The notes under the pieces: generated by a model
Database searches by the model: none
What the model was told of the DNA's origin: nothing
The model's input: only the letters and a program-made list of their open reading frames with translations
Source of the DNA: a virus
Lineage: Duplodnaviria > Caudoviricetes
Length of the DNA stretch: 64,000 nucleotides
Strand: one strand, 5' to 3'
IMG/VR virus record: IMGVR_UViG_3300031953_000001
Part shown: in pieces, positions 2,266-38,590 of the stretch
Layout of the letters: each line of letters opens with the position of its first letter
Numbering within the stretch: the first letter of the stretch is position 1
Position numbers and translations under genes: made by a program

Positions 2266-2928
2266 ATGATTAATCCACGCATTCGGTTGCTGCTTGACCC
2301 TCAATTTATTCGGTTCTCAGCCGACAGTTATCAATGGGCGCTGACCGCCGATCAAGAATACCACACCCTATCTCCATCGAGTCGTGCTGACATAGATTGT
2401 TATCGTCGAGGTGTGGTGTACACAGACACAGCCGTTGAGCTGATCAACGTTGAATTTAAAGACGTGCTTAAGGCCGATCGGTTAGGTAGAATCGTCGAAG
2501 CCGACGCTAAGCGGTCATGGTTGATCGTCAATCGCGCAACGCCAATCGATCCCCTAGGATTGGCATACACCTGGTTCATCACGCGGATCTCGTTGTACGT
2601 TCCAGACCGACACGGTCGGGTTCACCGTCCGATACCTGAATCCTTAGACCGCGGGGGAGTGATCGATCATCTGTTCCGTCAGTTTTTAAGTTGGGCGGAT
2701 AAGAACAATCACTTAACTGCTTTGAGTCCCACGCCCGAACAACCGGCGTTTATCGATGAGATCGAAGGATTGTTTACCACTACCGTTGATGTCTTGACTG
2801 CCAGTAACCCATACGTTCAACAGATCTTTAAAGACAACGCCCTGGCCGAGACCTTGATTGCATCCACCCAGATCAAAGATAGTCACACCAGCACAGAGCC
2901 GATTGCCCAAATGGGGACCGGTAACTAA
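2266..2928 (+). CDS. Hypothetical protein
   Basis: ATG at 2266 preceded by GGAGGA; in frame with track ORF 2170..2928. Confidence 0.7.
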   Translation: MINPRIRLLLDPQFIRFSADSYQWALTADQEYHTLSPSSRADIDCYRRGVVYTDTAVELINVEFKDVLKADRLGRIVEADAKRSWLIVNRATPIDPLGLAYTWFITRISLYVPDRHGRVHRPIPESLDRGGVIDHLFRQFLSWADKNNHLTALSPTPEQPAFIDEIEGLFTTTVDVLTASNPYVQQIFKDNALAETLIASTQIKDSHTSTEPIAQMGTGN

Positions 2929-2946
2929 CGGAGGTACCACCGCCGA

Positions 2947-3411
2947 GTGAACATTCTAGATGCATTGGGTAATGTGTTAGAACGCCGCGTGTCGGTCATA
3001 AAGATCGATGTGGTTTTAGGCATTCGTTTTATTGATGAGGTTCACGACTACACCAGAGTCGACCTCATTGCGCATTACCTAAGTAAACATAACGTCACCC
3101 TGTACTGTCACGACTTTGAACGGGCAGAACACATTAGACGGTTGCATCAGATGCACATTTTTGATCACGTTAAATCCATGTCCACCTCCACCACCTATTT
3201 TGCCGATACTCTGTCGGTGATGTACGAATGGATCGGACGACACAAATACGTCTATTGTACCGATCAACGCAAGGACGCTTACCGGTTGTTCGTCTTGTTG
3301 TGTGAAAGCTATCGATGTACCAGCGTGTTAAACTTGAAAGAGGATTTGCGTGAATTTATGTTTAACTATATCTACTCGCGGGATTTTATAGACCACAACT
3401 TATCTATTTAA
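2947..3411 (+). CDS. Hypothetical protein
   Basis: 154-aa ORF, SD GGAGG, GTG start, operon spacing. Confidence 0.65.
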   Translation: MNILDALGNVLERRVSVIKIDVVLGIRFIDEVHDYTRVDLIAHYLSKHNVTLYCHDFERAEHIRRLHQMHIFDHVKSMSTSTTYFADTLSVMYEWIGRHKYVYCTDQRKDAYRLFVLLCESYRCTSVLNLKEDLREFMFNYIYSRDFIDHNLSI

Positions 3412-3423
3412 GCGAGTGCTGGT

Positions 3424-3810
3424 ATGTCTCAATGCACCATTTACACCGTTCAGATCAACCACCTACGTGAAGCTATACTGAAAGACATCCCGGCGATTGA
3501 CATCACCGTGAAATCTGGGGAGTTGGCCTTTGCCCCCACTTGGGATATGGTCTGGGGGTCTAAGATGGGAACCTTATCCAACGCCCGGTACGAGGCGGAG
3601 TATACCGAGATGATGCTTGCCAGTCAGAAAAAGCACCCTGAAGTATGGCAGAAGGCCTTAGCCTTAACCGAAGTGGCCTTAGCGTGTTATTGTCCTCCGG
3701 GCAAGTTTTGTCATCGTCATTTATTAAAACGTATGCTCATCAATCTCCACTTACGCGAAGGCGTGGACGTGGTGGATGGGGGCGAATTCCTACCACAAGG
3801 AACACCGTGA
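3424..3810 (+). CDS. DUF488-like protein
   Basis: Motifs FAPTWDMV and LACYC...FCHRHLL are typical of DUF488-related phage proteins. Confidence 0.65.
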   Translation: MSQCTIYTVQINHLREAILKDIPAIDITVKSGELAFAPTWDMVWGSKMGTLSNARYEAEYTEMMLASQKKHPEVWQKALALTEVALACYCPPGKFCHRHLLKRMLINLHLREGVDVVDGGEFLPQGTP

Positions 3811-4199
3811 TGTTAAAGAAGACCTTATTTGAAATACACGATGAAGACCGGGCCTTAACCATAGAGCAGCTCGCAGAAGCGGTCCACGAGGCCAACCGCG
3901 CCTATTGCCTTGCACAAGGCGACCAAAGCCAGCCCTCCTGGGATGCGTGCAGTGAGGACGTCCGTGCAGGCACTCTCGACGGGGTAGTGTTTCATCTGGA
4001 TAATCCAGAAGCCACCGCCGATGGGTCTCATGAGAACTGGATGAACCATAAAACACAAGAAGGTTGGACGTACGGCGAGGTTAAAAGCGAAGCCGATAAG
4101 ACTCACCCCTCAATTGTTGCGTTCAACGACCTTCCTGAAAAGGAAAAGGTCAAAGACTATCTGTTCGAATGTTTGGTACGGACCCTCAGTAGTTTCTGA
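3810..4199 (+). CDS. RyR (ryanodine-receptor repeat) domain protein
   Basis: HENW...EGWTYGEVKSEADKTHPSIVAFNDLPEKEKVKD is the RyR-domain signature; the ATG overlaps the upstream TGA. Confidence 0.8.
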   Translation: MLKKTLFEIHDEDRALTIEQLAEAVHEANRAYCLAQGDQSQPSWDACSEDVRAGTLDGVVFHLDNPEATADGSHENWMNHKTQEGWTYGEVKSEADKTHPSIVAFNDLPEKEKVKDYLFECLVRTLSSF

Positions 4200-12699: not shown

Positions 12700-13944
12700 G
12701 TGGTGTTAACTATGCTAATTGAAAGCAAGAAGTATCGTGGGTTTTTTGATGTGCCGGGGGCACCGGGATACCTAGTAAACCGAAGTGGCGAATTCATCCT
12801 CGCGATAGATGGCAGTAAAATCAACGTCGGTAGCCGAAAGGTGGGTGTTTTAACAGTAAACTTTAAAATAAATGGGCGTTGGATTAAGCGTAGCGTAGCG
12901 AGAATAATTGCAAAGCTGTTCGTTGATGTACCGACTGAGTTATCTAACCAACGAGACACTCTACTGATCGACTACGTGGATGGAGACCGGTGGAACGTTG
13001 CAGTAGATAACCTTATATGGGTGACGTCGTCTGAACTTCAAAAGGTAGCTTTCAAACGGAAGATAGAACGTTTTCGCCAACAACACCCCGGATCTATTGC
13101 GGATGGCAAGAACGATAGATATCCGTATGCAATTGAGTGCTTCACGTTACCTGGATACTACTACTTACCGAATTTAAGTAATCCGGTAGTAATATCTAAG
13201 TTAGGACAAATTGTCAATCTGGAAACCGGAGCTGAACATCATACCAGAGTAGATAAGAAAGGATACCTTACCACCGCATTATACAACCAAGATCAAGGCA
13301 GATATATACAGGTTAAGGTTCATAGATTGGTTGCTAGGTTGTTCTCTCCTATTCCGCCTCGACATTCCGAGAGGGCCTACGATGATCTACAGGTTAATCA
13401 TCTGGATGGAGATAAACTAAACAACTACTATGAAAACCTAGAGTGGGTGACTAACGTTGAGAATATGGACCATGCTAGGAAGGCAGGGCTGTTCAGTAAT
13501 GAAATCACGGTATTGGCTAAAAATATCCAAACGGAAGAGATATCTAGATACGTATCGATTTCTGAGTGTGCTAGAACGTTCTTAATGTCCGCTAGTGTAT
13601 TATGCAAACATCTTAAATCATCGTCGGCGGGTATGATCCCTAAAGAAAGCCATGTTTTCAAACTTGACGATGATTCTCCATGGCCAAACTCGATAGCTGA
13701 AGTAGATACGGAAAACGGGTTCTATGCCAAATGCGACGTTGTGGCAAAAAACCTAAATACTGGTAAGTCGGTTATTTGCAGCAATTTAGCGCATGGCTGC
13801 AGGATATTGGGTTTAAATAAGTATACTGTCATGAACATTAGATCCCGTCAAGGAGTAGACTGGCCGGTTAAAGGTTGGGTATTTGTGTCGGTAGCCGAAT
13901 TCAAACGAACAAAGGGGACGTACGTTGATAATCTTCAAATCTAG
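12700..13944 (+). CDS. Free-standing HNH homing endonuclease (tandem HNH modules, first degenerate)
   Basis: Intact HRLVA...QVNHLDGDKLNNYYENLEWVT and degenerate IDYVDGDRWNVAVDNLIWVT; visibly more AT-rich than flanks; overlaps the terminase start by 20 nt; no group I core seen. The start may be the ATG at 12712. Confidence 0.85.
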   Translation: MVLTMLIESKKYRGFFDVPGAPGYLVNRSGEFILAIDGSKINVGSRKVGVLTVNFKINGRWIKRSVARIIAKLFVDVPTELSNQRDTLLIDYVDGDRWNVAVDNLIWVTSSELQKVAFKRKIERFRQQHPGSIADGKNDRYPYAIECFTLPGYYYLPNLSNPVVISKLGQIVNLETGAEHHTRVDKKGYLTTALYNQDQGRYIQVKVHRLVARLFSPIPPRHSERAYDDLQVNHLDGDKLNNYYENLEWVTNVENMDHARKAGLFSNEITVLAKNIQTEEISRYVSISECARTFLMSASVLCKHLKSSSAGMIPKESHVFKLDDDSPWPNSIAEVDTENGFYAKCDVVAKNLNTGKSVICSNLAHGCRILGLNKYTVMNIRSRQGVDWPVKGWVFVSVAEFKRTKGTYVDNLQI

Positions 13945-16072
13945 TTGGCGAAAATACCCTCGGGCGATTATCGATAGCAAAACACCAAACACCACCTTTT
14001 TGCGCTTGGCCTCGGTCTATCGCGCTATGGGTGTGGATCATTATTACTTTCACTTGGCGTTACTTCAACCTGAGCTTCAGGGGATAGACCCTCACAATGA
14101 AGACGCGTTGACGCTTGAGCAGAAAGCCATGATTTTGTACGAGTGCGATAACAACCCTTGGTATTACCTGAGGGAGATCGTGCTCGATAAAGGCGCAGGT
14201 TTGGAAATCGACGACTGTCGCTTTCGAGCCAATCGCTCTAACATTGCGGCTATGTGGTTGTTGCTGTCGTGTGTTGACTACATTCAAATACAACCACGGC
14301 AGACCGGTAAGTCCTTTGGTACCGACTGCAACTCTTTGTGGTTGATGTATTTTTGTTATCGCAACACGGCACTGAACCTGATCACTAAAGATGAGTCTTT
14401 GCGCAAATCCAACATCGCTCGGTTGAAGAAACTCCGGGATATGTGGCCAGACTTCATTAACCGCAATACGTCCAAAGACGACAACAACCAGATCTCCTTG
14501 TCGTGCAACATGTTGGAGAACAAATACTACACCCACGTCTCCCAAAGTTCTGAGAAAGCCGCGAACAATCTGGGTCGGGGGATGACCAGTCCGTTTATCC
14601 ACGTGGATGAGGGTCCGTTCATCAACCACATAGAGACCACGGTCAGCGCGGCTATGGGTTCGACCAACATGGCGCGGGAGATTGCCAAGCGCAAAGGCAA
14701 GCCGTATTGCACAGTGTTCACCACCACAGCCGGCAACCAAGAAGACCGGGATGGGCGTTACGTCTTTAACATGATGGCAGGGTCGGCAATCTGGACCGAG
14801 CGTTTCTTTGACTGTGTGAACCGAGAGGAGCTGGTGGGTTACATCAAAACCAACTCCGATGGGCGGGCCACCATGGTGAACCTGACCATGTCGCATCGTC
14901 AGTTGGGGTTGTCCGATCAGTGGTTGTACGAGGCCTTGGCCAACGCGCGCTCGGAAAGCGACAACATCGACCGAGATTACTTCAACCGTTGGACCAACAG
15001 CTCATCGACCTCCTTGATTCCAGAACACCTAGCTAAGGCCATGCGGCAATCGGAGAAAGAACCCGTCAGCAGTTGGATCTCCTCGGAGAATTACATCTTT
15101 CGCTGGTACACCGAAGTCGATGCGAGTCGCCATTACGTGTTGGTGGTGGATACCTCCGATGCGATCGGACGAGACGACATTGGTGTGGTGTTGTTGGATT
15201 CGCACACAGGCGCTGTGGCCGGTGCCGCGGCGTTCAACGAGACCAACCTCATTCGGTTTGCCCAGTGGTTGAAAGAGTTCTTGTTGAAGTATCGCAACAG
15301 CACCATGGTGATCGAGCGACGTTACAACGCACAAACCATCATCGACTACCTATTGTTAAAACTGCCAGAAGCGGGGGAAGACCCCTTTAAGCGGCTGTTT
15401 AACCAAGTGGTGCAAAAACGCGAAGAGCGGCAGAAGGATTTTGATCGGGTCATGGGTCCTGGTCTTAACCGCCCTAGAAACATGTACGATCAATACCGTC
15501 GAGACTTCGGGTTTGTGACCGATTCGGAAAGTCGGAAGTTGTTGTACTCCAACGTGTTGATGAACGCGGCTAAAGATGCAGGGGACCGTGTCAACGACAA
15601 GCAGTTGATTCAACAGGTGCTGTCTTTGGTCATTAAGAACAACCGGATAGACCACACCTCCGGTGGACACGATGACATGGTCATTGCGTGGTTGATTGGG
15701 CATTGGTTCTTAAACCACGGCATCAATCTGGCGGCCTATGGGTTGAACCCAGCAAGCGTCATGACCGACCGGGCTCGAGGGGGTAAAGAACTCACTCCCA
15801 CGGAGGAGTATGAGCATCAAGAGCAAAAGGCATTAATGAGTCACATTGAATCCATCCATGAGCAGTTGAAGGTGGTCAGTGGACGAATGGACATTCTTAG
15901 ACTAGAGGGGGAGATGACCGCAGCCATGTCTCGACTTAAGAGCGACGATTCAGACGGTGTGACTTTGGATGCTCTTTTACAAGAAGCCAAGGACACCCGC
16001 GATCGACGTTTGTATGGGCGCCAAGGTGCCCCTAATCGAACTCGGATGCTGTTGGAACGTTATGGACGTTAA
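13925..16072 (+). CDS. terL: Terminase large subunit (phiKZ gp25-like)
   Basis: Walker A QPRQTGKS, Walker B IHVDEG, nuclease motifs VVDTSDAIGRD and HDDMVIAW; TTG start with AAAGGGGA SD inside the HNH gene. Confidence 0.92.
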   Translation: MIIFKSSWRKYPRAIIDSKTPNTTFLRLASVYRAMGVDHYYFHLALLQPELQGIDPHNEDALTLEQKAMILYECDNNPWYYLREIVLDKGAGLEIDDCRFRANRSNIAAMWLLLSCVDYIQIQPRQTGKSFGTDCNSLWLMYFCYRNTALNLITKDESLRKSNIARLKKLRDMWPDFINRNTSKDDNNQISLSCNMLENKYYTHVSQSSEKAANNLGRGMTSPFIHVDEGPFINHIETTVSAAMGSTNMAREIAKRKGKPYCTVFTTTAGNQEDRDGRYVFNMMAGSAIWTERFFDCVNREELVGYIKTNSDGRATMVNLTMSHRQLGLSDQWLYEALANARSESDNIDRDYFNRWTNSSSTSLIPEHLAKAMRQSEKEPVSSWISSENYIFRWYTEVDASRHYVLVVDTSDAIGRDDIGVVLLDSHTGAVAGAAAFNETNLIRFAQWLKEFLLKYRNSTMVIERRYNAQTIIDYLLLKLPEAGEDPFKRLFNQVVQKREERQKDFDRVMGPGLNRPRNMYDQYRRDFGFVTDSESRKLLYSNVLMNAAKDAGDRVNDKQLIQQVLSLVIKNNRIDHTSGGHDDMVIAWLIGHWFLNHGINLAAYGLNPASVMTDRARGGKELTPTEEYEHQEQKALMSHIESIHEQLKVVSGRMDILRLEGEMTAAMSRLKSDDSDGVTLDALLQEAKDTRDRRLYGRQGAPNRTRMLLERYGR

Positions 16073-18002: not shown

Positions 18003-19277
18003 TTAGAAGACGCTGGAGACAAGTTCATCCGCACGTGACTCCATGGCTCCCCCTTGACTGTAGTAGCTCATGGTGAAGGTCCTAAGGACGATGTAGATCA
18101 TACATCCCGTTCTAACAGACGCCAGCAACGATTTGTTGTTTGACCTGACCGCCCGCTTGGTGATGGCCAACGACAAATCACGCATCTTCATCAAGGCCGG
18201 ATCACTGGAACGTGACGACATGTACAAACTGCGCAACCGAGAGATCAACACCGACAGATTGATGCTGTTACGAAACACCTGACGATTCTCGCTCATGAAC
18301 TCAAATGCATGAATCAAGGTCTCATCGATCAACTCGCCAATCTTTGGATCACCTCGGCGACCGTAGTTGTCGGCCATGTACTCCAAGGCCGTTATTAGGT
18401 GTCGATCGGGCAGGGTGTGCATGACGTCAGAGACGATCTTCACCAGCTCCGGACGAATGAAGGTCTGACGGTCACTCAGGGCGCTGTGGATGTACCGTTT
18501 GAACTGGCTGCTTTTGCGCGACAGATCACGGACGTGCATCTGACCGTCCAAGTCAATCAACGATGAGCGAGTCTGTACCCGAGAAGAGCTCTTCTTCACC
18601 TCGTAAAAGACGTGTACCATCTTTTTCACGATTTCCCGAATCCGACCTTGGACGTCGGTGAGCACGTAGAGGATGTCCTTGTCGTTGTCGTAGCGTGCAA
18701 TGGTGTTGGCGTGTATTGAGTTACGGGATAAGATGTCTTCGCAACGCGCGGTGATCAAGGCTGTCCAGCTGCCTTTTTGTTTCAGTGCAAACTTGTAACT
18801 CAAAGCTGCGTAAGTGGCCTCGACTATCGAGCGATCGGGCTCGTATGGGAAGTTGTGTGCCATCAATGAACTCAAGTACCGGTAATGCAGAATCCTTAGA
18901 GTGTCCATCATCCCCTGCTCCCGTTGTCGGGCAGACAGGGAGCTGCTGGTCATCAACGCGTGCAACATCCACACAATCGAGTGGGAGAACACATCGCTCT
19001 GCACGTTTCGTTCAGGGTGGATGCTTGGCAGCGAGTGCAACTCGGTCTTCAGAGCCACGTCGTCAACTTGCATGATCTCATCGAACCACAGGTTCCGCTC
19101 GGAGTTGTGGAATCGTAACGCTGGGGTTCCTAAAAGGTTGCCGCCTAAGAAGGCGATGTGGTTTTCGTTTTTGTTCACGAAGTGGCGTTCAAACTGACTG
19201 ATGGTCTTCACAAGCTTGAGATCGATCTTCAGGTGTTTCATCTCTTGCTCGAAAACCTCACGGATGGTACTTGCCAT
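18003..19277 (-). CDS. Conserved phiKZ-like core protein (gp32-like, putative virion protein)
   Basis: 424 aa; FVNKNENHIAFLGGNLLG and YAALSYKFALKQKGSW match a recalled conserved jumbo-phage family. Confidence 0.7.
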   Translation of the reverse strand: MASTIREVFEQEMKHLKIDLKLVKTISQFERHFVNKNENHIAFLGGNLLGTPALRFHNSERNLWFDEIMQVDDVALKTELHSLPSIHPERNVQSDVFSHSIVWMLHALMTSSSLSARQREQGMMDTLRILHYRYLSSLMAHNFPYEPDRSIVEATYAALSYKFALKQKGSWTALITARCEDILSRNSIHANTIARYDNDKDILYVLTDVQGRIREIVKKMVHVFYEVKKSSSRVQTRSSLIDLDGQMHVRDLSRKSSQFKRYIHSALSDRQTFIRPELVKIVSDVMHTLPDRHLITALEYMADNYGRRGDPKIGELIDETLIHAFEFMSENRQVFRNSINLSVLISRLRSLYMSSRSSDPALMKMRDLSLAITKRAVRSNNKSLLASVRTGCMIYIVLRTFTMSYYSQGGAMESRADELVSSVF

Positions 19278-19545
19278 ACGGGGCCTCGTCTCTGGGTTTG
19301 TTGTCTATATGATCGGGCGTCAACGGCCCCGCGGGGGGACCGGCCAGCTGATCCCCTTGTGAGGGTATCAAAGGTATCACGGGGGGGTGTAGATCTTTGG
19401 TCTGTTCTGTATGGGTTGTTTCTTCTGTGATCGATGCATCCGTTCTGTTACCCTCATCCATACAAAAACCCAACTCATCTATTATTCTTTACAGGACGGA
19501 TTTATTATTTGCTAGAAAGAGGAGCGTAAGCGACCAGCCTTTCGA

Positions 19546-19918
19546 GCCCTACGTTTACGTAGGGCGTAGGTGGCAACGTAGTAAGGAGGGGTAGCGATAG
19601 TGTGCGTCTACGCAATATGGGGTTATTGCTAAAGCGTGCACCACGACCCCAAGTTCCTCCTATGGTATAGCGCGTTAAGCGCGCTCGTGCTTAAGGTTAT
19701 CGTTGGGGTAACGGGTTTGCGATGACCTTAAGTGTGCTGGTGTCCAGAGAACCCTTTGTTGAATAAACACAAGTTTGTACGGGTTACTTGTGTTTGGGTA
19801 AATTACGGCGGTTACAGGTTGTGTTTGCCTTGCGTTGGTTCGCGATGGCCGTTACCTACGGGGTTCTCTGGACGGGGCTTAGTAAGTCGCATGAGGAGGC
19901 TCAGGCCTCCTCTTATGC
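19546..19918 (+). ncRNA. Candidate structured non-coding RNA (unknown class)
   Basis: At least six stems, including a 13-bp long-range helix 19742-19754/19861-19873; G-U pairs are valid only on the + strand; no credible ORF. Confidence 0.5.
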
Positions 19919-19935
19919 CGATTCCAACAAAAGAC

Positions 19936-19957
19936 AGACCTATATAACAAAGGTGAG
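19936..19957 (+). promoter_or_regulatory. Putative phage promoter, class ARACC-TAYATMAYNA-AGGTGA
   Basis: AGACCTATATAACAAAGGTGAG; the same motif occurs at 32970 and 56827; core resembles the phiKZ early TATATTAC consensus. Confidence 0.6.
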
Positions 19958-19990
19958 TTACCCATACGAACCTTTAGAAGGAAGTCCATT

Positions 19991-20170
19991 ATGTCGTTTA
20001 TAAAGAGCGTTGCTATAAGTGTTGCTGTGAGTGTTTCTGTCAATGGCGCGTTCGCCGTTGGCCGTAAGCTGAAGACTAAGTACGATCAGCGCAACAAGAA
20101 GACCACCGCAACACACACCCCCAAACCAGACACCACTACCGATGAGTACGCCAAAGAACGTACACGTTAA
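19991..20170 (+). CDS. Small hypothetical protein (59 aa, hydrophobic N-terminus), not in the ORF track
   Basis: MSFIKSVAISVAVSVSVNGAFAVGRKLKTKYDQRNKK...RTR*; SD AAGGA; lies just downstream of the promoter motif. Confidence 0.6.
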   Translation: MSFIKSVAISVAVSVSVNGAFAVGRKLKTKYDQRNKKTTATHTPKPDTTTDEYAKERTR

Positions 20171-23520: not shown

Positions 23521-24480
23521 ATGTCTAAGAAATTACGAGTATTTGGCTGTGGCGGTGCGGGTATTAACCTGGTGACTCATTACTTCGGTAAAGACGCCGA
23601 AGCGGGCATGGCCGAGATGGCCCCAGCGCTGATCGACACCAGTCGCTCTAACCTTATGGGCCGTAAGATTGACGAGGACTCCACGTACTTGGTAGAAGGC
23701 TTGGATGGCTCCGGTAAGATCCGCTCCGAGAACTACGACTCTATCAATAAGACCATCAAACAGATCCTGGTTCAAATCCCCCCCTGCGATATGAACGTAG
23801 TGGTGTTCAGTGCCTCAGGCGGCTCCGGGTCAGTCATCGGTCCGCTGATCATTAAGCACCTGAACGAGAAACAGATCCCTGTAATCGCGATGGTCATCGG
23901 CAGCGACGAATCCACCATCGCCGCAGAAAACACCCTCAAAACCATCAAGTCGTTGGAACTGGTGGCTAAGAACTCCAACATGCCGGTCATCATGTCGTTC
24001 CACAAAAACGATTTGGCTGGTCGGCGTTCTGACGTGGATCGTTCCGTGTGGTCAGTGATTTCATGCTTGAGCATTCTGTCGTCTGGCCAAAACGCTGAGA
24101 TGGACTACCGTGATCTGGTGCATTGGGTACAGTACACTAAGATCAACGGCGGCCGCGCTCAACTGGCAACCATGCACGTGGCTACTTCAGCCGAGCACAT
24201 GAAACGCATCACCTCACCTTTGTCGGTTGCCAGCTTGTACGGCAACCCGGATCAGGAACACCTGGCCACCTCGGCGGATTACCAGTCAGTGGGTTACACC
24301 GATCTGTCCAACACCGATTTCGATCAGATCCACTTCGTCATCGGCGTGAACGACTTGTCCCGTATAGGACGGGATTTAAAGTCACAGGTAAGTCAGCTGT
24401 TAGAAGAACGAGGCGCTCGGTTGGACGTTGATTCCATCCTCGACTCAGAAGACAACACCGATCAAGACGTTGTGCTATGA
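23521..24480 (+). CDS. phuZ: PhuZ phage tubulin
   Basis: GCGGAGIN and tubulin signature SASGGSGSVIGP; 319 aa; acidic C-terminal tail. Confidence 0.93.
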   Translation: MSKKLRVFGCGGAGINLVTHYFGKDAEAGMAEMAPALIDTSRSNLMGRKIDEDSTYLVEGLDGSGKIRSENYDSINKTIKQILVQIPPCDMNVVVFSASGGSGSVIGPLIIKHLNEKQIPVIAMVIGSDESTIAAENTLKTIKSLELVAKNSNMPVIMSFHKNDLAGRRSDVDRSVWSVISCLSILSSGQNAEMDYRDLVHWVQYTKINGGRAQLATMHVATSAEHMKRITSPLSVASLYGNPDQEHLATSADYQSVGYTDLSNTDFDQIHFVIGVNDLSRIGRDLKSQVSQLLEERGARLDVDSILDSEDNTDQDVVL

Positions 24481-32969: not shown

Positions 32970-32990
32970 AGACCTACATCATCAAGGTGA
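32970..32990 (+). promoter_or_regulatory. Putative early promoter of chimallin
   Basis: AGACCTACATCATCAAGGTGA, same class as 19936 and 56827. Confidence 0.6.
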
Positions 32991-33052
32991 CATAGTTCGC
33001 TTAAGAACTGTGTTTGCGCAAACACAAACCGAAGAAAGCAGGAGTATTACGC

Positions 33053-34909
33053 ATGCCAGTAAATATCGATGACGACAACACACCAAACACCAACCCACCC
33101 CGCGAAGAACAGACTGCCCCCCGTTCCAACCAAAACCAACAGTCTCGTTCTCCCCGCGGTAAACGTGAAGGCATGGGTGCTCTTGGCGAACGCATCCAGC
33201 GTTCTATGAAACGCAACCAGATGGGCGAGGCCTTGGCTGAGTATCAGCGTGCTGTGGACAAAATCTTCAGCGATCTGATGGCACAGACAGGCGCTGAGTT
33301 TAAGGTTCTGCCTTTGGACGCCAGCCGTCACTCCCTACACTACTCAGCAGTCATGCTGGTAGGCGTAATGAACATCGGTGGCCAAAGCATCGCCTCGACG
33401 TACACCATGATTCTCGAGGGGTCTGCGTCTGACCCTCGTCCGGTCATTGCTCAGGTGTACGGGCAACCTGTTGAATCCATCCGCACCGCGATGGACGCGT
33501 GGGACGAACTGACGTGGCAGAAAGTGCAGTCAGTGGTTGCTCAGCAATACGGCGACGGTGTCAACATCATGAACGCCGGTGCGATGGTCGTACCTGCCGA
33601 AGTAGAAGCCAAGGATGAAGAGCGTGTGTGGCAGATCGTTTGGGCCGCTCAGGAAGCTGTACTGTCCAATCTGGAAAGCGCTTTCCCACAAGACTTTGCT
33701 CATTTCAACCTGGCTGAGATGTTTGATCCGTCTCGCGATCGCATGAACGCGTCTTTCACCTACAACGGTGATGATGGCGAATCGGTTACCGGTCTACCTG
33801 TACGTAGTGACATCACTTTGGTCATGGCCGCCAGCGAACGCAACTCCAGCGGTCGGGATGACGTGTCGTCTTTCCAACACCAGACCTCTCGTGACCTGAT
33901 GGAAGTGAACAGCTACGTGGATCTGGTGTACGCCCCGAGCAATCAAGTGCCCGCACCGGGCCAACAGCCACCGACTCAGACCTTCGTGCCACGTGTGGTT
34001 CTGACCAAGGTTACCGCTTTGGATGCGCCGTTTACTCCAGAAACGTTCCTGTTGGCACTAGCCACCTCGTGCTTGTTGGGCGAAAGCTACAACTGGGCGT
34101 CTCAGTTCGCTAACTTCTCGGCTGAAGAAGTGCACGACATTGGCGGCGTTGGTTACCGCATGAAGAACCCAGCAGACGCCAACGCGGCGTCGGCAGCCAT
34201 CGACACCAAGACCAACAGCTTTGGCACCAACGAGTTGTTTGACCTGGTACAACACACTTGCTGGAAAGATCCTGCGTTCTCCATCGACTGTGAAGACGTG
34301 GGTCCCGAGTCCTGGCTGACAGGTGCCCTGGTAGATGCCGCACACAACAATGCCCAAGCGATGGACTTCATCGTGCAAGCAGCCAACAACTTGACCAATG
34401 GTCAGTTCAGTCAAGTGTGGCAGGGCGGTTCCATCACAGCGTCTGAAAACAACAAGGTACATTTGGGTACCTACGTGGATGCTCAGGGTCAGATCCGCGA
34501 TCTGCGGGAAATCGACAGCCTGGCGATCCTGAATCACTTCGGTCATAACGACATGACTGCGGTTAACCTGTGGGAAAGCACGTTTAACGACATGCAAGCA
34601 CCCATCGAACTGCGCCTTGAGAAGCGTCTCCAGATGATCCGTCAGCTGGCAGGTAAACTCAAGATCCGTGGCTTCGCTGAGCGCGTAACCTTCGTTCCAG
34701 AATTCCTGGATGCGCTGGTACAATCAGTCGTGCGTGCTGGCTTGGCAGTAGATCAAGATGGCCTACAGTCTCTGTACGGTCAGAATGTGCAAGTTGGCAA
34801 CAACTTCCTGCAGAACTACGCTGCGCACACCGGCGCCAACGGCATGATGAACCAAAGTGGCCCTGTCGGTCACCACGCGTTCCGTCGGCCGATGTCCCGC
34901 TGGGGCTAA
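33053..34909 (+). CDS. chmA: Chimallin (phage nuclear shell protein, phiKZ gp54-like)
   Basis: ATG at 33053 with CAGGAG SD; 618 aa with disordered termini; QTFVPRVVLT motif; lies immediately upstream of the nvRNAP beta' gene. Confidence 0.88.
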   Translation: MPVNIDDDNTPNTNPPREEQTAPRSNQNQQSRSPRGKREGMGALGERIQRSMKRNQMGEALAEYQRAVDKIFSDLMAQTGAEFKVLPLDASRHSLHYSAVMLVGVMNIGGQSIASTYTMILEGSASDPRPVIAQVYGQPVESIRTAMDAWDELTWQKVQSVVAQQYGDGVNIMNAGAMVVPAEVEAKDEERVWQIVWAAQEAVLSNLESAFPQDFAHFNLAEMFDPSRDRMNASFTYNGDDGESVTGLPVRSDITLVMAASERNSSGRDDVSSFQHQTSRDLMEVNSYVDLVYAPSNQVPAPGQQPPTQTFVPRVVLTKVTALDAPFTPETFLLALATSCLLGESYNWASQFANFSAEEVHDIGGVGYRMKNPADANAASAAIDTKTNSFGTNELFDLVQHTCWKDPAFSIDCEDVGPESWLTGALVDAAHNNAQAMDFIVQAANNLTNGQFSQVWQGGSITASENNKVHLGTYVDAQGQIRDLREIDSLAILNHFGHNDMTAVNLWESTFNDMQAPIELRLEKRLQMIRQLAGKLKIRGFAERVTFVPEFLDALVQSVVRAGLAVDQDGLQSLYGQNVQVGNNFLQNYAAHTGANGMMNQSGPVGHHAFRRPMSRWG

Positions 34910-34968: not shown

Positions 34969-35089
34969 CAAGTCGTTCTTACTCCGCACGACCTGAACTA
35001 AGGTACCTTAAACGACATTGGAACTGGTTAAAGCCAACCTAGATTCGTTATGGTACGAGAAAAGACGTTCTCTACTAGGGAGTATATCG

Positions 35090-36367
35090 ATGCAATTACC
35101 AACTTCACACGTGGCCACCAAAAGCCAATCTGGAGTGTTCTGTGAGTTGATTGATTACGATCGACTCTATGAGTCAGTGTCCGACCACGCCATGCTGGTC
35201 AATACGTTCAACACCCGCAACGACGATGAAAAGGAACGTCTGAACCGGTTACTGTACACCGAATACGAAGGCGATACCTTAGATAGCAAACCTACCTGCG
35301 ACTGTGGTAAGTTGGCGGGTGAGTACAACAAAGGCATTAAGTGCAGCAACTGCGGTACCGCGGTGGTGGCCATCACCGAACGTCCAATGGAGTCCCTGCT
35401 TTGGATCAAGGCCCCGGACGGAGTGCGTTCCTTTATCTCTCCGGCTGCTTGGAACGTACTAAACTCCATGTTCACCTACCGAGGCGTTCAATTGGTGCGT
35501 TGGTTGACTGACCCAACCTACACCCCCAACAAGAACGTAGACCGCACCGACCCCCTGTTCGAACGCTTCCGTCAGGCGAGTTGGAAACGGTCCATCAACC
35601 ACTTCATCGACAACTTTGATCAAGCCTGCCAGATGATCTTCGATGGGAAAGTTGTGAACCCCATTCCCAGACGCCGCCGGATGGAGCAGTTCATCGAGGA
35701 GAACCGAGACCGCTTCTTCCCTCAATACCTACCGATCCCCAACCGCGCCATCTTCATCACTGAGAAGACCGCTATGGGCACTTACGCCGACAACGTGATG
35801 TACTCGGCGATCGACGCCGTGCGCACCATGACGTCGCTGGATTCGGGGATTGGGCCGGCCACTCAACGGATTAAAGAAAACCGGACGGTGAAGGTCATCC
35901 AGCAACTGTCCAGTTACTATCTGGAGTACACCAAGAACAACCTGTCTAAGAAACCCGGCATGTTCCGGCGGCAGGTGTATGGGTCTCGACTGGACTTCTC
36001 TGGGCGGGCGGTGATCAGTTCGTTGTCGCACCCCCATGCGTACGATGAGCTGCATTTCCCTTGGGGGTTGGCGGTGATGATACTCAAGAGTCACATCACC
36101 AGTAAATTGATGCGACGCGGTATGACGCCCAGTTCAGCGGAAGAGTTTCTGATGCTGCACACCACCAAATACCACCCACTGTTAGAGACGTTGTTCGACG
36201 AGTTGTTAGAGGAAAGCCCGCAGAAACGCCTTCCCGTGTTGTTCCAACGGAACCCGTCTCTGGTGCGTGGCTCAGCCCAGCAACTGTACATCAGTAAGAT
36301 CAAGACCGACCCTACCATCAACACCATCAGTTTCTCCGTTCTGGCCTTGGCCGCACCGAACGCGGAT
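35090..36367 (+). CDS. nvRNAP beta' N-terminal subunit (phiKZ gp55-like), exon 1
   Basis: SD AGGGAG; Zn finger CDCG...CSNC; RLDFSGRAVI and VLFQRNPSL; ends ...APNAD at the splice site. Confidence 0.92.
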
Positions 36368-36393
36368 TAAAGTCTTTCGATAAGTTTCTAAAT

Positions 36394-36407
36394 ATATATC
36401 ATCCACG
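36394..36407 (+). promoter_or_regulatory. Promoter motif inside the intron, upstream of the HNH gene
   Basis: ATATATCATCCACG followed by GAGGTGA SD. Confidence 0.55.
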
Positions 36408-36429
36408 TACATTAGATGCGAGGTGATTT

Positions 36430-37425
36430 ATGTACTTAGAAGAATGCTTAAGTGTATCAGGTTATTATCACCACCCCCGATTCGAGACCATAGCAATTTC
36501 TCGAGATAGCGACGTTGTGGATCTAAAGACGAAGGAAAGTCTGACCCAGTCGTTCAACGGGTACATGGAGTACTACACAGTTAACGTCCCTAAATACGGT
36601 ACACACACAATGCACCGACTCGTAGCGGAGACCTTCATTGAAGAAGATCGCCCCATCGAGAAATTACACGTTAACCATAAGGACGGTGATAAAGCCAAAA
36701 ACCAGGCTGATAATCTTGAGTGGGTTACGCCACAAGAGAATGCCATTCACGCATACACCAGTGGGTTAAGAAGCGATAACCGCGAGGTCTTAGCAATTAA
36801 TCTCAACACTGGTGAGGAACGTTCGTTCTACTCGTTAAATGAGGCAGCCCGATCGTTTAACGTAAACCCTGAGAAGCTCCACCGTTGGTTGAACAGTAAA
36901 GAACTGTATCCGTTCAACCACCACTGGAACTTGTGTTACAAAGGAAGTCAGTGGAAACCGTTGGATAAGTCGCACATTGGACAGCATCCAAGATCGCATC
37001 CCAGTGATGTGGTGTTATATCGACTGGACGATCAGTGCGCTATCCTTGTAGGTAGCTTTGCCCAAGGGGCAGAGATGCTTGGAACCACCAGCACTACTGT
37101 GTCTAAGTACGCCAATGAGTATGCTAAGGTCCCCCTCAAAGGACACCTTGTATATATCGTCAGCGATTACCCGGACGAGTTGGTCGAAGCAGTAGATTGT
37201 AGGAAGGAACGAATACCACCGACTGCGCCCACCCGAAAGCCAGAACGGATCATTGTAGCCGATACGGTTGCTGATACGTCCAAGGAATGGAATTCGGTAA
37301 GCGAGTTTGCGTTTAGCGTCACTGCTAAGAAAAATACGATTCAACGCTCGATGTTGAAGAACGACGGTATGTGGAAACACTATTGCATTAAGTATATCGA
37401 CAGTCAAAGTCCTACACGGCAGTAA
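36430..37425 (+). CDS. Intron-encoded HNH homing endonuclease
   Basis: MHRLVAETF...HVNHKDGDKAKNQADNLEWVT; located between P1 and the intron core. Confidence 0.9.
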   Translation: MYLEECLSVSGYYHHPRFETIAISRDSDVVDLKTKESLTQSFNGYMEYYTVNVPKYGTHTMHRLVAETFIEEDRPIEKLHVNHKDGDKAKNQADNLEWVTPQENAIHAYTSGLRSDNREVLAINLNTGEERSFYSLNEAARSFNVNPEKLHRWLNSKELYPFNHHWNLCYKGSQWKPLDKSHIGQHPRSHPSDVVLYRLDDQCAILVGSFAQGAEMLGTTSTTVSKYANEYAKVPLKGHLVYIVSDYPDELVEAVDCRKERIPPTAPTRKPERIIVADTVADTSKEWNSVSEFAFSVTAKKNTIQRSMLKNDGMWKHYCIKYIDSQSPTRQ

Positions 37426-37732
37426 TGTCGTGTGTATACTCCTTTAATTGCTGGAAACCCCTGAGAGCTTCATCGACCACAACGTGGCTGGAAACGGCGA
37501 GCGTGACGGTTCAAAAACGATGAGGATTGGGCAATCAGCAGCGAAGCTCCTGTAAAATGGAGAACGTTCAACGACTATCGCCGGCGGGCGAGTAGAACCC
37601 GAGTGGGTTCGAAATAGGGAGGGTCCTAACTCTAAACGAGAAGGATCAAGATATAGTCTCGACGTCCAGTGAAAGCTGGAGCTGCAGATCGTGCTGCGGG
37701 GTGGATTTAACGTATCCACCTGAAGATTTTTG

Positions 37733-37918
37733 TTTGACGGCGACGAAATGAATGTTGAGCTTTTGCTCGACCAGGTAGAACTAAAAGCGTTCAGTCGTCT
37801 GGCTCCTCACATGGGCGTACTGGATACCCACGCACCGTTCAAGATTTCAGGCAACATCAAGCTTCCTGGACCTGTGATGTCTACCGTGGTGTCGTGGATG
37901 CACCATGGCGAGGAATAA
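37733..37918 (+). CDS. nvRNAP beta' N-terminal subunit, exon 2 (phiKZ gp56.1-like)
   Basis: Begins TTT GAC GGC GAC GAA ATG AAT (FDGDEMN). Confidence 0.9.
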   Translation, partial: FDGDEMNVELLLDQVELKAFSRLAPHMGVLDTHAPFKISGNIKLPGPVMSTVVSWMHHGEE

Positions 37919-37966
37919 ACACATCAATGACCCCGAACAACCCGTACCGTTTGATAAAGGAGGACC

Positions 37967-38590
37967 GTGCGAATGCCTCAATTCTATACCGGTGACAACG
38001 ACACGTTCGATGCGTTTGCGCACGGTGAGGTTCACCCCGAAACCGCCCGCTACCTAGAGAACATGATACAACAACCCACCCAAGCTATAGGCGCAGCCAG
38101 TCAAGCACTGATGAGTCAATCGGCAGAGCTATACGATCGGTTCATGGGTTCCACCGCCATGCGTCGCATTCGTGCCGCCGGTCGTCAGATTGCCAGTCAT
38201 TGGCAACGCGACACCATCATGCCAATAACGACCCCCGCACAACTCCAGACGGCACCTATGTCTATGCATCGATGGCTGATGGCGGAACCAACGGTGCGGG
38301 CTTTGTACCACGAGCAGCAATGCGATGGGTACAGCGATACTTACGTAGACGCCGAACCCGGACGTCGGGGCGTAGACCACAGCGACTATCGTCGTGTGAT
38401 GGACGGTATTGTTGAGATGGACGAAGACGGCGGTTGGTCGTCTACGGAATATCTGGACGAGCTCCCAGAGAACGAGAAAGAGTTCTTGTTTGAGGAGCAA
38501 TTCGATCTTCTGCGCAGTTGGCACACCATGGCTGCAGCTGTTATGGCCAAGAAGGACGATCCTACCTCACCGTGGAACGCTGAACTGTAA
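37967..38590 (+). CDS. Conserved core protein (phiKZ gp59-like)
   Basis: SD AAGGAGG; C-terminal DPTSPWN; synteny. Confidence 0.65.
   Translation: MRMPQFYTGDNDTFDAFAHGEVHPETARYLENMIQQPTQAIGAASQALMSQSAELYDRFMGSTAMRRIRAAGRQIASHWQRDTIMPITTPAQLQTAPMSMHRWLMAEPTVRALYHEQQCDGYSDTYVDAEPGRRGVDHSDYRRVMDGIVEMDEDGGWSSTEYLDELPENEKEFLFEEQFDLLRSWHTMAAAVMAKKDDPTSPWNAEL

Follow-up and report, generated by a model that had tools for sequence, protein, structure and literature searches.

A structured noncoding RNA of nucleus-forming jumbo phages and its possible pairing with the chimallin mRNA leader

The region studied here is an intergenic gap in a 64,000-nucleotide (nt) stretch of phage DNA (IMG/VR record IMGVR_UViG_3300031953_000001; hereafter the window). 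The window belongs to an uncultured, nucleus-forming jumbo phage from brines that encodes chimallin and PhuZ, as well as the β subunit of a phage multisubunit RNA polymerase, a tail sheath protein, and a terminase; its DNA was detected in many brine metagenomes. The gap spans 713 nt without genes, between a minus-strand gene (18003–19277) and small plus-strand genes starting at 19991. The minus-strand gene encodes a 424-amino-acid homolog of phiKZ gp32 (32% identity, E = 5e-86), with relatives in 292 phage records, all at 60% identity or less. A preliminary description, made from the sequence alone, had placed a structured noncoding RNA (ncRNA) of ~370 nt between divergent transcription units at this locus, and the units are indeed the gp32 homolog on the minus strand and the small genes on the plus strand. 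Our analysis indicates that the gap very probably holds a real, independent gene for a structured ncRNA, and this RNA represents a previously undescribed structured family in nucleus-forming phages. Table 1 lists the features of the RNA.

Relatives of the locus were gathered via the flanking protein, the gp32 homolog, and the fold was found to be kept in ten related uncultured phages. In clade A, the RNA lies upstream of a gp32 homolog 66 to 82% identical to that of the window (lineages L017, L001, L019, L003/L004, and L021); in clade B, where the protein is 61 to 62% identical, it is diverged yet recognizable (L022, L028, L023, the last a TARA ocean scaffold, and L029). Folded singly, each homolog gives the same hairpins, and all the helices listed in the preliminary description are present where it had placed them, far above chance across the homologs. 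The comparison of related intergenic regions that it had suggested was carried out on model-based alignments, which are fitted to their models and hold only six distinct sequences. The models were built from the better-aligned subset; a seven-sequence MAFFT alignment with RNAalifold misaligned the long hairpin. In the 3′ domain (alignment A8), 96.5% of the cells are paired and 15 of the 34 pairs have changed on both sides, compared with 6.1 ± 1.7 in shuffled alignments (0/500 reach 15) and one to five in slid controls. The covarying pairs of this domain include 6/12 of the long-range helix and 5/6 of hairpin H_D. For hairpin H_B (alignment A10), 92.7% of the cells are paired and 10 of the 24 pairs have changed on both sides, compared with 3.6 ± 1.5 in shuffles, none of 500 reaching 10, and zero to three in slid controls. 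In both alignments, the compensatory changes go beyond what relatedness explains, as expected of a structured ncRNA. Smaller hairpins follow the same pattern: four pairs of P2 are changed on both sides (CCUA/UAGG versus UUAC/GUAA), and two pairs of H_A covary (GCGCG/CGCGC versus GCACU/AGUGC). The 5′ hairpin P1 is predicted for every homolog and does not change within clade A; because its sequence never varies, it shows no covariation.

Table 1. Coordinates of the RNA gene, its elements, and related features in the window
Feature	Position	Strand	Remarks
ncRNA gene, ~400 nt	~19514–19920	+	ends inferred from promoter-like block and terminator
Promoter-like block	19488–19512	+	TTTACA, ~9–10 nt, then TTATTATTTG; recognized by conservation
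5′ hairpin P1	19515–19543	+	GAAAG...CUUUC, with invariant AGAGGAGCG-NN-AGCGACC motif
Hairpin P2	19546–19553/19558–19565	+	GCCCUACG/CGUAGGGC
Variable middle domain	19566–19659	+	closed by G-run/C-run helix; 94 nt here, up to ~180 nt in L001
Hairpin inside middle domain	19612–19617/19624–19629	+	
Invariant block CUAUGGUAUAGC	19660–19671	+	identical in 6/7 clade A sequences; L017 has UUAUGGUAUAGC
Hairpin H_A	19669–19674/19680–19685	+	AGCGCG/CGCGCU
Long hairpin H_B	19689–19733	+	conserved loop, GUUGGGGU...GGUUUGC; arms include 19691–19702/19720–19731
3′ domain	19742–19873	+	closed by 13-bp long-range helix 19742–19754/19861–19873
Hairpin H_D	19765–19795	+	inside 3′ domain; conserved loop UUGUACGGGUU; arms 19765–19774/19786–19795
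Invariant block GGUUGUGUUUGC	19817–19828	+	inside 3′ domain; unchanged in clade A and L022
Terminator	19893–19920	+	GC-rich hairpin (19893–19912), then UAUGCCG
PhuZ (tubulin) gene	23521–24480		~3.6 kb from RNA gene
Putative target site GCAAACACAA	33018–33027	+	35 nt before chimallin ATG, not over the ribosome-binding site
Shine–Dalgarno sequence AGGAG of chimallin gene	33040–33044	+	
Chimallin coding sequence	33053–34909	+	nuclear shell protein (PHROG name)

The + strand of the region folds to −163.5 kcal/mol (z = −5.3 versus dinucleotide shuffles), and the minus strand reaches z = −7.9; because both strands fold well, the fold of a single sequence is uninformative on strand. The 13-nt arms of the long-range helix occur at only these two sites in 64 kb, compared with 0.07 expected. 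Across homologs, the strands are told apart: the conserved helices of the 3′ domain hold 36 G-U cells versus one A-C cell, and the minimum free energy of the + strand is 30 to 58 kcal/mol more stable than that of the minus strand in 7/7 homologs. The argument of the preliminary description, that G-U pairs point to RNA rather than to cruciform DNA, is borne out by these counts. Were the region to act as DNA, for instance as an origin of replication, a packaging site, or a cruciform, this would explain the dense inverted repeats, the position ~3.5 kb from the terminase gene, and the fact that the minus strand folds too. This alternative is nevertheless largely refuted by the strand asymmetry just described, by a promoter and a terminator that are both directional, and by an excess in an RNA library, given below, at a place where DNA libraries are flat. 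As judged from the G-U asymmetry, the promoter-like block, and the terminator type, the RNA is encoded on the + strand.

The layout TTAC(A)-N~10-TTAT(A/T)AT(T)TG precedes the RNA in 14 lineages, the cultured Ralstonia phage RP31 among them, and the RNA's promoter motif is single-copy in the 64-kb window. No sigma-70 promoter was found upstream of the RNA, the block itself having no sigma-70 match. In phiKZ, middle promoters carry a TAC(T) motif ~22 nt upstream of the transcription start site, with A-rich sequence before it (PMC8244752). In the window, the TAC of TTTAC likewise stands ~22 nt ahead of the inferred, unmapped RNA start, and A-rich sequence lies ahead of it in several lineages. The block resembles the phiKZ middle class, with both the class and the start read from sequence, and we infer that the RNA is transcribed from its own phage-type promoter. 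At the other end, hairpins followed by TATGCCG occur at eight further places in the window (746(+), 2118(+), 17960(−), 21117(−), 48233(−), 59211(−), 4209(−), and 723(−)), and those inspected sit just past gene ends. At several gene ends of the window, GC-rich hairpins carry TATGCCG or TATGCGG in place of a U-run, and GACAAAAAATAAG precedes several of the minus-strand copies. In relatives, a hairpin with a U-run marks the 3′ end of the RNA, among clade A in all except L017. The RNA would thus have its own promoter, judged from conservation only, and its own terminator, apart from a putative target 13 kb away. With these ends, the core of the ~370-nt extent first proposed stands; the RNA itself begins ~30 nt further 5′, so as to include P1.

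If the element were instead a cis-acting leader or attenuator, it would govern read-through into the small genes starting at 19991. The window and most relatives in clade A do have same-strand genes downstream, and the 3′ terminator could be regulated. Moreover, clade B and FLC9 show an attenuator-like U-run after the second hairpin, ~55 to 80 nt from the start. Because of this U-run, a short RNA of 55 to 80 nt may also be made in these phages. Against such a role, the next gene is convergent in L029 and L024, so that the RNA is not a leader there; the downstream genes vary between lineages, and a separate conserved promoter-like motif, ATAT(T/A)AC, lies beyond the RNA terminator. We regard a leader function as highly improbable.

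Expression was assessed in environmental libraries. In one RNA run, the brine metatranscriptome X19, seen as contigs only, a contig over 19620–19827 has a word depth of 702, while the flanking contigs have depths of 15.7 (gp32 homolog) and ~8 (downstream genes), a 45- to 85-fold excess for the RNA. Contigs of this kind are a poor measure of level and cannot establish RNA ends, and gaps outside 19620–19827 are uninformative. Three DNA runs are flat across the region, at ~10, so carried-over DNA cannot account for the excess. Together with the covariation, the strand asymmetry, the promoter-like block, and the terminator, this contig upholds the preliminary claim of a structured ncRNA on the + strand. 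The X19 contig ends at 19284, 19620, and 20513 abut Illumina adapter sequence. Their orientations would suit a stranded library and, as a hint only, transcripts that begin at these points: the mRNA of the gp32 homolog (−), the ncRNA (+), and the mRNA of a 192-amino-acid gene (+), respectively.

The same contig can be read as the trace of a ribozyme, or of an RNA that processes itself, belonging to no described class; the species from 19620, which is the abundant one, would then be a cleavage product. The structure is large and conserved, with invariant junction sequences, and the contig begins right after the adapter, in a hairpin loop ~105 nt past the inferred start. However, the surroundings of 19620 are the variable domain and poorly conserved, contig ends cannot fix RNA ends, and no ribozyme family was matched at E up to 10, all of which makes this reading improbable, if somewhat less so than a leader.

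The Infernal/Rfam scan proposed in the preliminary description (cmscan, Rfam 15) returned no family at the gathering score and no real family match at E up to 10 between 19250 and 20050. The sole match at that threshold aligned the 23-nt terminator hairpin with a Brucella small RNA (sRNA), at 13.7 bits versus a cut-off of 382. Likeness to tRNA, tmRNA, RNase P, or a group I intron had been denied from the start, and the Rfam and ARAGORN searches agree: ARAGORN found no tRNA or tmRNA genes in the window, and there was no Rfam model match for RNase P, 6S, signal recognition particle, or Y RNA. A group I intron was rejected because RF00028 is matched only at 37343–37681, with no match in 19250–20050 and no split gene flanking the locus. 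Hammerhead and other small self-cleaving ribozymes were rejected, with no family at E up to 10 in 19250–20050, as were GOLLD, ROOL, OLE, and raiA, for which no covariance-model match was obtained. Nor is there a conserved reading frame: frames and stops differ between the homologs, and indels between the invariant blocks are not multiples of three (e.g. 22 versus 23 nt). Open frames occur only because the strand is poor in A, and the statement that the stretch has no credible open reading frame (ORF) holds.

Within the RNA, invariance is confined to the 5′ hairpin, CUAUGGUAUAGC, two of the loops, and GGUUGUGUUUGC. Both the length and the sequence of the middle domain differ among lineages, with its G-run/C-run pairing predicted in every homolog. 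A pseudoknot or switch between TGGGGT loops and ACCCCAA had also been suggested. The sequences are found where they were said to be, but the proposed interaction is not supported. The first TGGGGT loop (19618–19623) is not conserved in relatives, and in every homolog the C-rich segment before CUAUGG prefers the nested upstream G-run over the conserved UUGGGGU loop (in the window, −16.0 versus −11.9 kcal/mol). Clade B RNAs have the 5′ motif of the window, a long-range helix, and the same hairpin-loop motif (UUUUUAGGGGUU versus UUUGUACGGGUU) on unrelated stems. The GGAGCG-N1-2-AGCGAC motif of P1 is kept in clade B and occurs in altered form in L024, FLC9, L025, and L030. The block GUUGUGUUUGCGC is kept in L022 and altered in L028, L023, and L029. 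Clade B RNAs also carry, ~70 to 100 nt past the start, three tandem 8-nt repeats (CUACGUAU ×3 in L022/L028; UUACUAAU ×3 in L023/L029).

Farther out, L024, L025, and L030, as well as cultured RP31 and FLC9, retain the promoter-like block and a 5′ motif, with an RNA body that is shorter and different. The RNA is absent in phiKZ, which has only a 90-nt gap upstream of gp32, and in L031, where the gap is 120 nt. No match was obtained when the intergenic region was compared by blastn with 50,697 phage records, and scans for DNA patterns in IMG/VR, JGI metagenomes, and GTDB genomes yielded the same four to five contigs plus chance matches only. All 71 extra loci from these scans were rejected by model R1, and a clade B motif scan of IMG/VR gave 106 matches, none of them real. 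Some lineages carry an extra gene between the RNA locus and the gp32 homolog (L017, 2297–2983; L027, FLC9 gp22, 2822–3901; L033, RP31 ORF021, 1767–2372), so the neighbor of the RNA can change while the promoter region stays.

The window was searched for complements of the invariant elements of the RNA. For the block GGUUGUGUUUGC, a complement lies in the 5′ leader of the chimallin message, encoded 13 kb from the RNA gene; the other conserved loops gave only chance-level matches with two mismatches in the window. The match is 10 nt long in the window, and the lineages L001 and L003, with differing flanks, reach 15 perfect pairs (GGUUGUGUUUGCGCA with UGCGCAAACACAACC); the site lies at −35 to −40 from the chimallin ATG. 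In the window, the 10-mer occurs only in the RNA gene (as the complement) and in the chimallin leader, compared with 0.17 expected. The contigs of four relatives hold it exactly twice each, in the RNA gene and ~50 nt before the chimallin start, and reversed-pattern controls in these contigs gave none. Complementarity to the translation-initiation region is thus conserved; it is invariant and hence not a case of covariation. Pairing was judged by longest-run analysis; RNAduplex on full-length RNAs gave meaningless long duplexes. The leader site is unpaired in the predicted fold of the chimallin leader and forms the 3′ arm of a perfect palindrome (TGTTTGCGCAAACA), and GGUUGUGUUUGC is identical to the 5′ arm of this leader hairpin over 11 to 12 nt. 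In the L001 leader, the 5′ arm is mutated and the 3′ arm unchanged. Inside the RNA, the intramolecular partner of GGUUGUGUUUGC shifts from G-U to A-U pairing while the block itself stays constant (helix 4).

Chimallin leaders carry a perfect palindrome ~30 to 45 nt before the start codon, the sequence of which is phage-specific: GTGTTTGCGCAAACAC in the window (leader stretch 32990–33052) and, within about −60 to −30, GCTTTGCAAAGC in RP31 (L117) and ACACACTCGAGTGTGT in FLC9 (L115). In the clade of the window, a covarying hairpin stands ahead of this palindrome.

Our leading guess from these sequence comparisons, tentatively held, is that the RNA is a trans-acting regulator of the chimallin mRNA by base pairing. 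The RNA would act in trans, its covarying stems holding a few invariant elements, of which GGUUGUGUUUGC(GCA) would pair with GCAAACACAA(CC) in the chimallin 5′ leader, ~35 nt before the start codon. Such pairing could tune, in a direction that we can only infer, the translation or stability of the mRNA for the nuclear shell once middle transcription starts. If the pairing holds in clade B, it would join GAUGUGUUUCGC with GCGAAACACAUC in L028 and GGUUGUGCAACG with CGUUGCACAACC in L023/L029. A bolder version, in which the RNA is a dedicated, abundant, folded riboregulator that controls chimallin synthesis and whose invariant block invades or occupies the conserved hairpin region of the leader, seems possible but doubtful to us; in it, the remainder of the 400-nt fold would serve stability, localization, or as a protein platform.

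The main competing account makes the RNA a scaffold or decoy for protein, or an architectural RNA that assembles with itself. Its loops UUGUACGGGUU and GUUGGGGU, its block CUAUGGUAUAGC, and the AGCG repeats near its 5′ end would be presented to a protein of phage or host or, as in GOLLD and ROOL, to other copies of the RNA; the resemblance to the chimallin leader would then reflect chance or a recognition sequence that both share for protein binding. Invariant loops on freely covarying stems suit such a role, as do the H_D loop motif kept on entirely different stems in clade B, the abundance of the RNA, and its large, multi-domain fold. The repeats fit as well, namely the 5′ AGCG direct repeat, kept with 1- to 2-nt spacing across distant lineages, and the three tandem 8-nt repeats of clade B, and so does the identity of GGUUGUGUUUGC with the 5′ arm of the leader hairpin. 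On the other hand, the 15-nt complementarity exceeds the 11 to 12 nt of that identity, and pairing is therefore favored over a shared motif. No sequence or structure match to GOLLD, ROOL, OLE, 6S, or Y RNA was found in Rfam, and no conserved partner protein lies downstream, the neighboring gene not being conserved between the clades and the downstream proteins of clades A and B being unalike. We consider a scaffold somewhat unlikely.

Several observations weigh against regulation of chimallin in trans. The RNAs of RP31 and FLC9, which have the same promoter and locus, lack complementarity to their own chimallin leaders beyond chance, a point that also speaks for a scaffold. There is no trans-covariation, because the complementary segments are invariant among the lineages in which it could be tested, and in the window the match is down to 10 nt by noncompensatory changes at both ends. 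The predicted accessibility of the block in the RNA, 0.22 to 0.61, is no better than the RNA average. Most of the structure is left unexplained, since a 400-nt multi-domain fold far exceeds the needs of a base-pairing seed, and the leader palindrome could be a protein operator instead. Finally, expression rests on the contigs of one RNA run. Taking these points together with those in its favor, we assign a probability of roughly 0.4 to the whole account, that is, a stand-alone, stable, and abundant ~400-nt + strand ncRNA acting in trans on the chimallin mRNA.

Nucleus-forming phages keep transcription apart from translation, as eukaryotes do, and their control at the RNA level is, to our knowledge, almost unexplored. 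The family described here sits at a fixed locus, with a conserved promoter, a defined fold, and signs of high natural abundance, and it suggests a concrete, testable connection with the mRNA for the nucleus-building protein of the phage. If that connection is true, assembly of the phage nucleus would have its first regulator at the RNA level; even without it, the RNA joins a short list of large structured phage RNAs of open biochemistry. No clade A phage is cultured, and the same locus in the cultured phages RP31, RP12, and FLC9, with the same promoter and a different RNA body, offers an experimental entry point.

Other parts of the window deserve brief mention. The interval 19278–19487, between the start of the gp32 homolog and the promoter block of the RNA, is conserved in relatives too; it contains TATATA(A/G) ~30 nt before the gp32 homolog, a CCCCGCGGGG palindrome, and G-runs, and probably serves that gene as promoter and leader. 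An HNH endonuclease ORF (12700–13944) abuts and overlaps the start of the terminase large-subunit ORF (13925–16072), where a homing endonuclease may have inserted. A second HNH endonuclease ORF (36430–37425) and the RF00028 group I intron (81.8 bits in a cmscan of the window) directly follow the RNA polymerase β-subunit ORF (35018–36370) and precede a phrog_3254 ORF (37967–38590), an arrangement over 35018–38590 that recalls the intron-plus-endonuclease layout reported for PhiPA3-like phages.

Known systems for comparison include the ncRNAs reported for phiKZ and 201phi2-1. Among these are a ~100-nt RNA derived from a 3′ untranslated region (UTR) after PHIKZ298, 5′ UTR-derived sRNAs, and sRNA005, which precedes the gp182/gp277 tail gene (bioRxiv 10.1101/2020.12.06.403469; PMC11512511). 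They too come from nucleus-forming jumbo phages, are intergenic, and have hairpin terminators; they differ from the window RNA in being shorter than 250 nt, mostly UTR-derived, at other loci, and without sequence similarity to it. A 2026 review notes that phiKZ expresses ncRNAs and says nothing further on RNA-level control (PMC13282480). A large survey of viral structured RNAs reports motifs of 29 to 151 nt only, which could include fragments of this RNA (PMC10690425). With trans-encoded base-pairing sRNAs, the window RNA shares a promoter and terminator of its own and 10 to 15 nt of invariant complementarity to the 5′ leader of one distant mRNA; compared with typical members of that class, its length is four to eight times theirs, its structure is far more elaborate, and its proposed seed is not clearly single-stranded. 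The “ornate” RNAs GOLLD, ROOL, and OLE, which are large and structured, occur in bacteria, prophages, and phages and have been studied by cryo-EM (PMC12286853). The window RNA is shorter than GOLLD and ROOL and, in a window without tRNA genes, occupies a fixed locus upstream of the gp32 homolog rather than a place beside tRNA genes. It nevertheless resembles all three in its length of several hundred nucleotides, its multi-domain covarying fold, its phage-borne and abundant nature, its open function, and its mainly metagenomic record.
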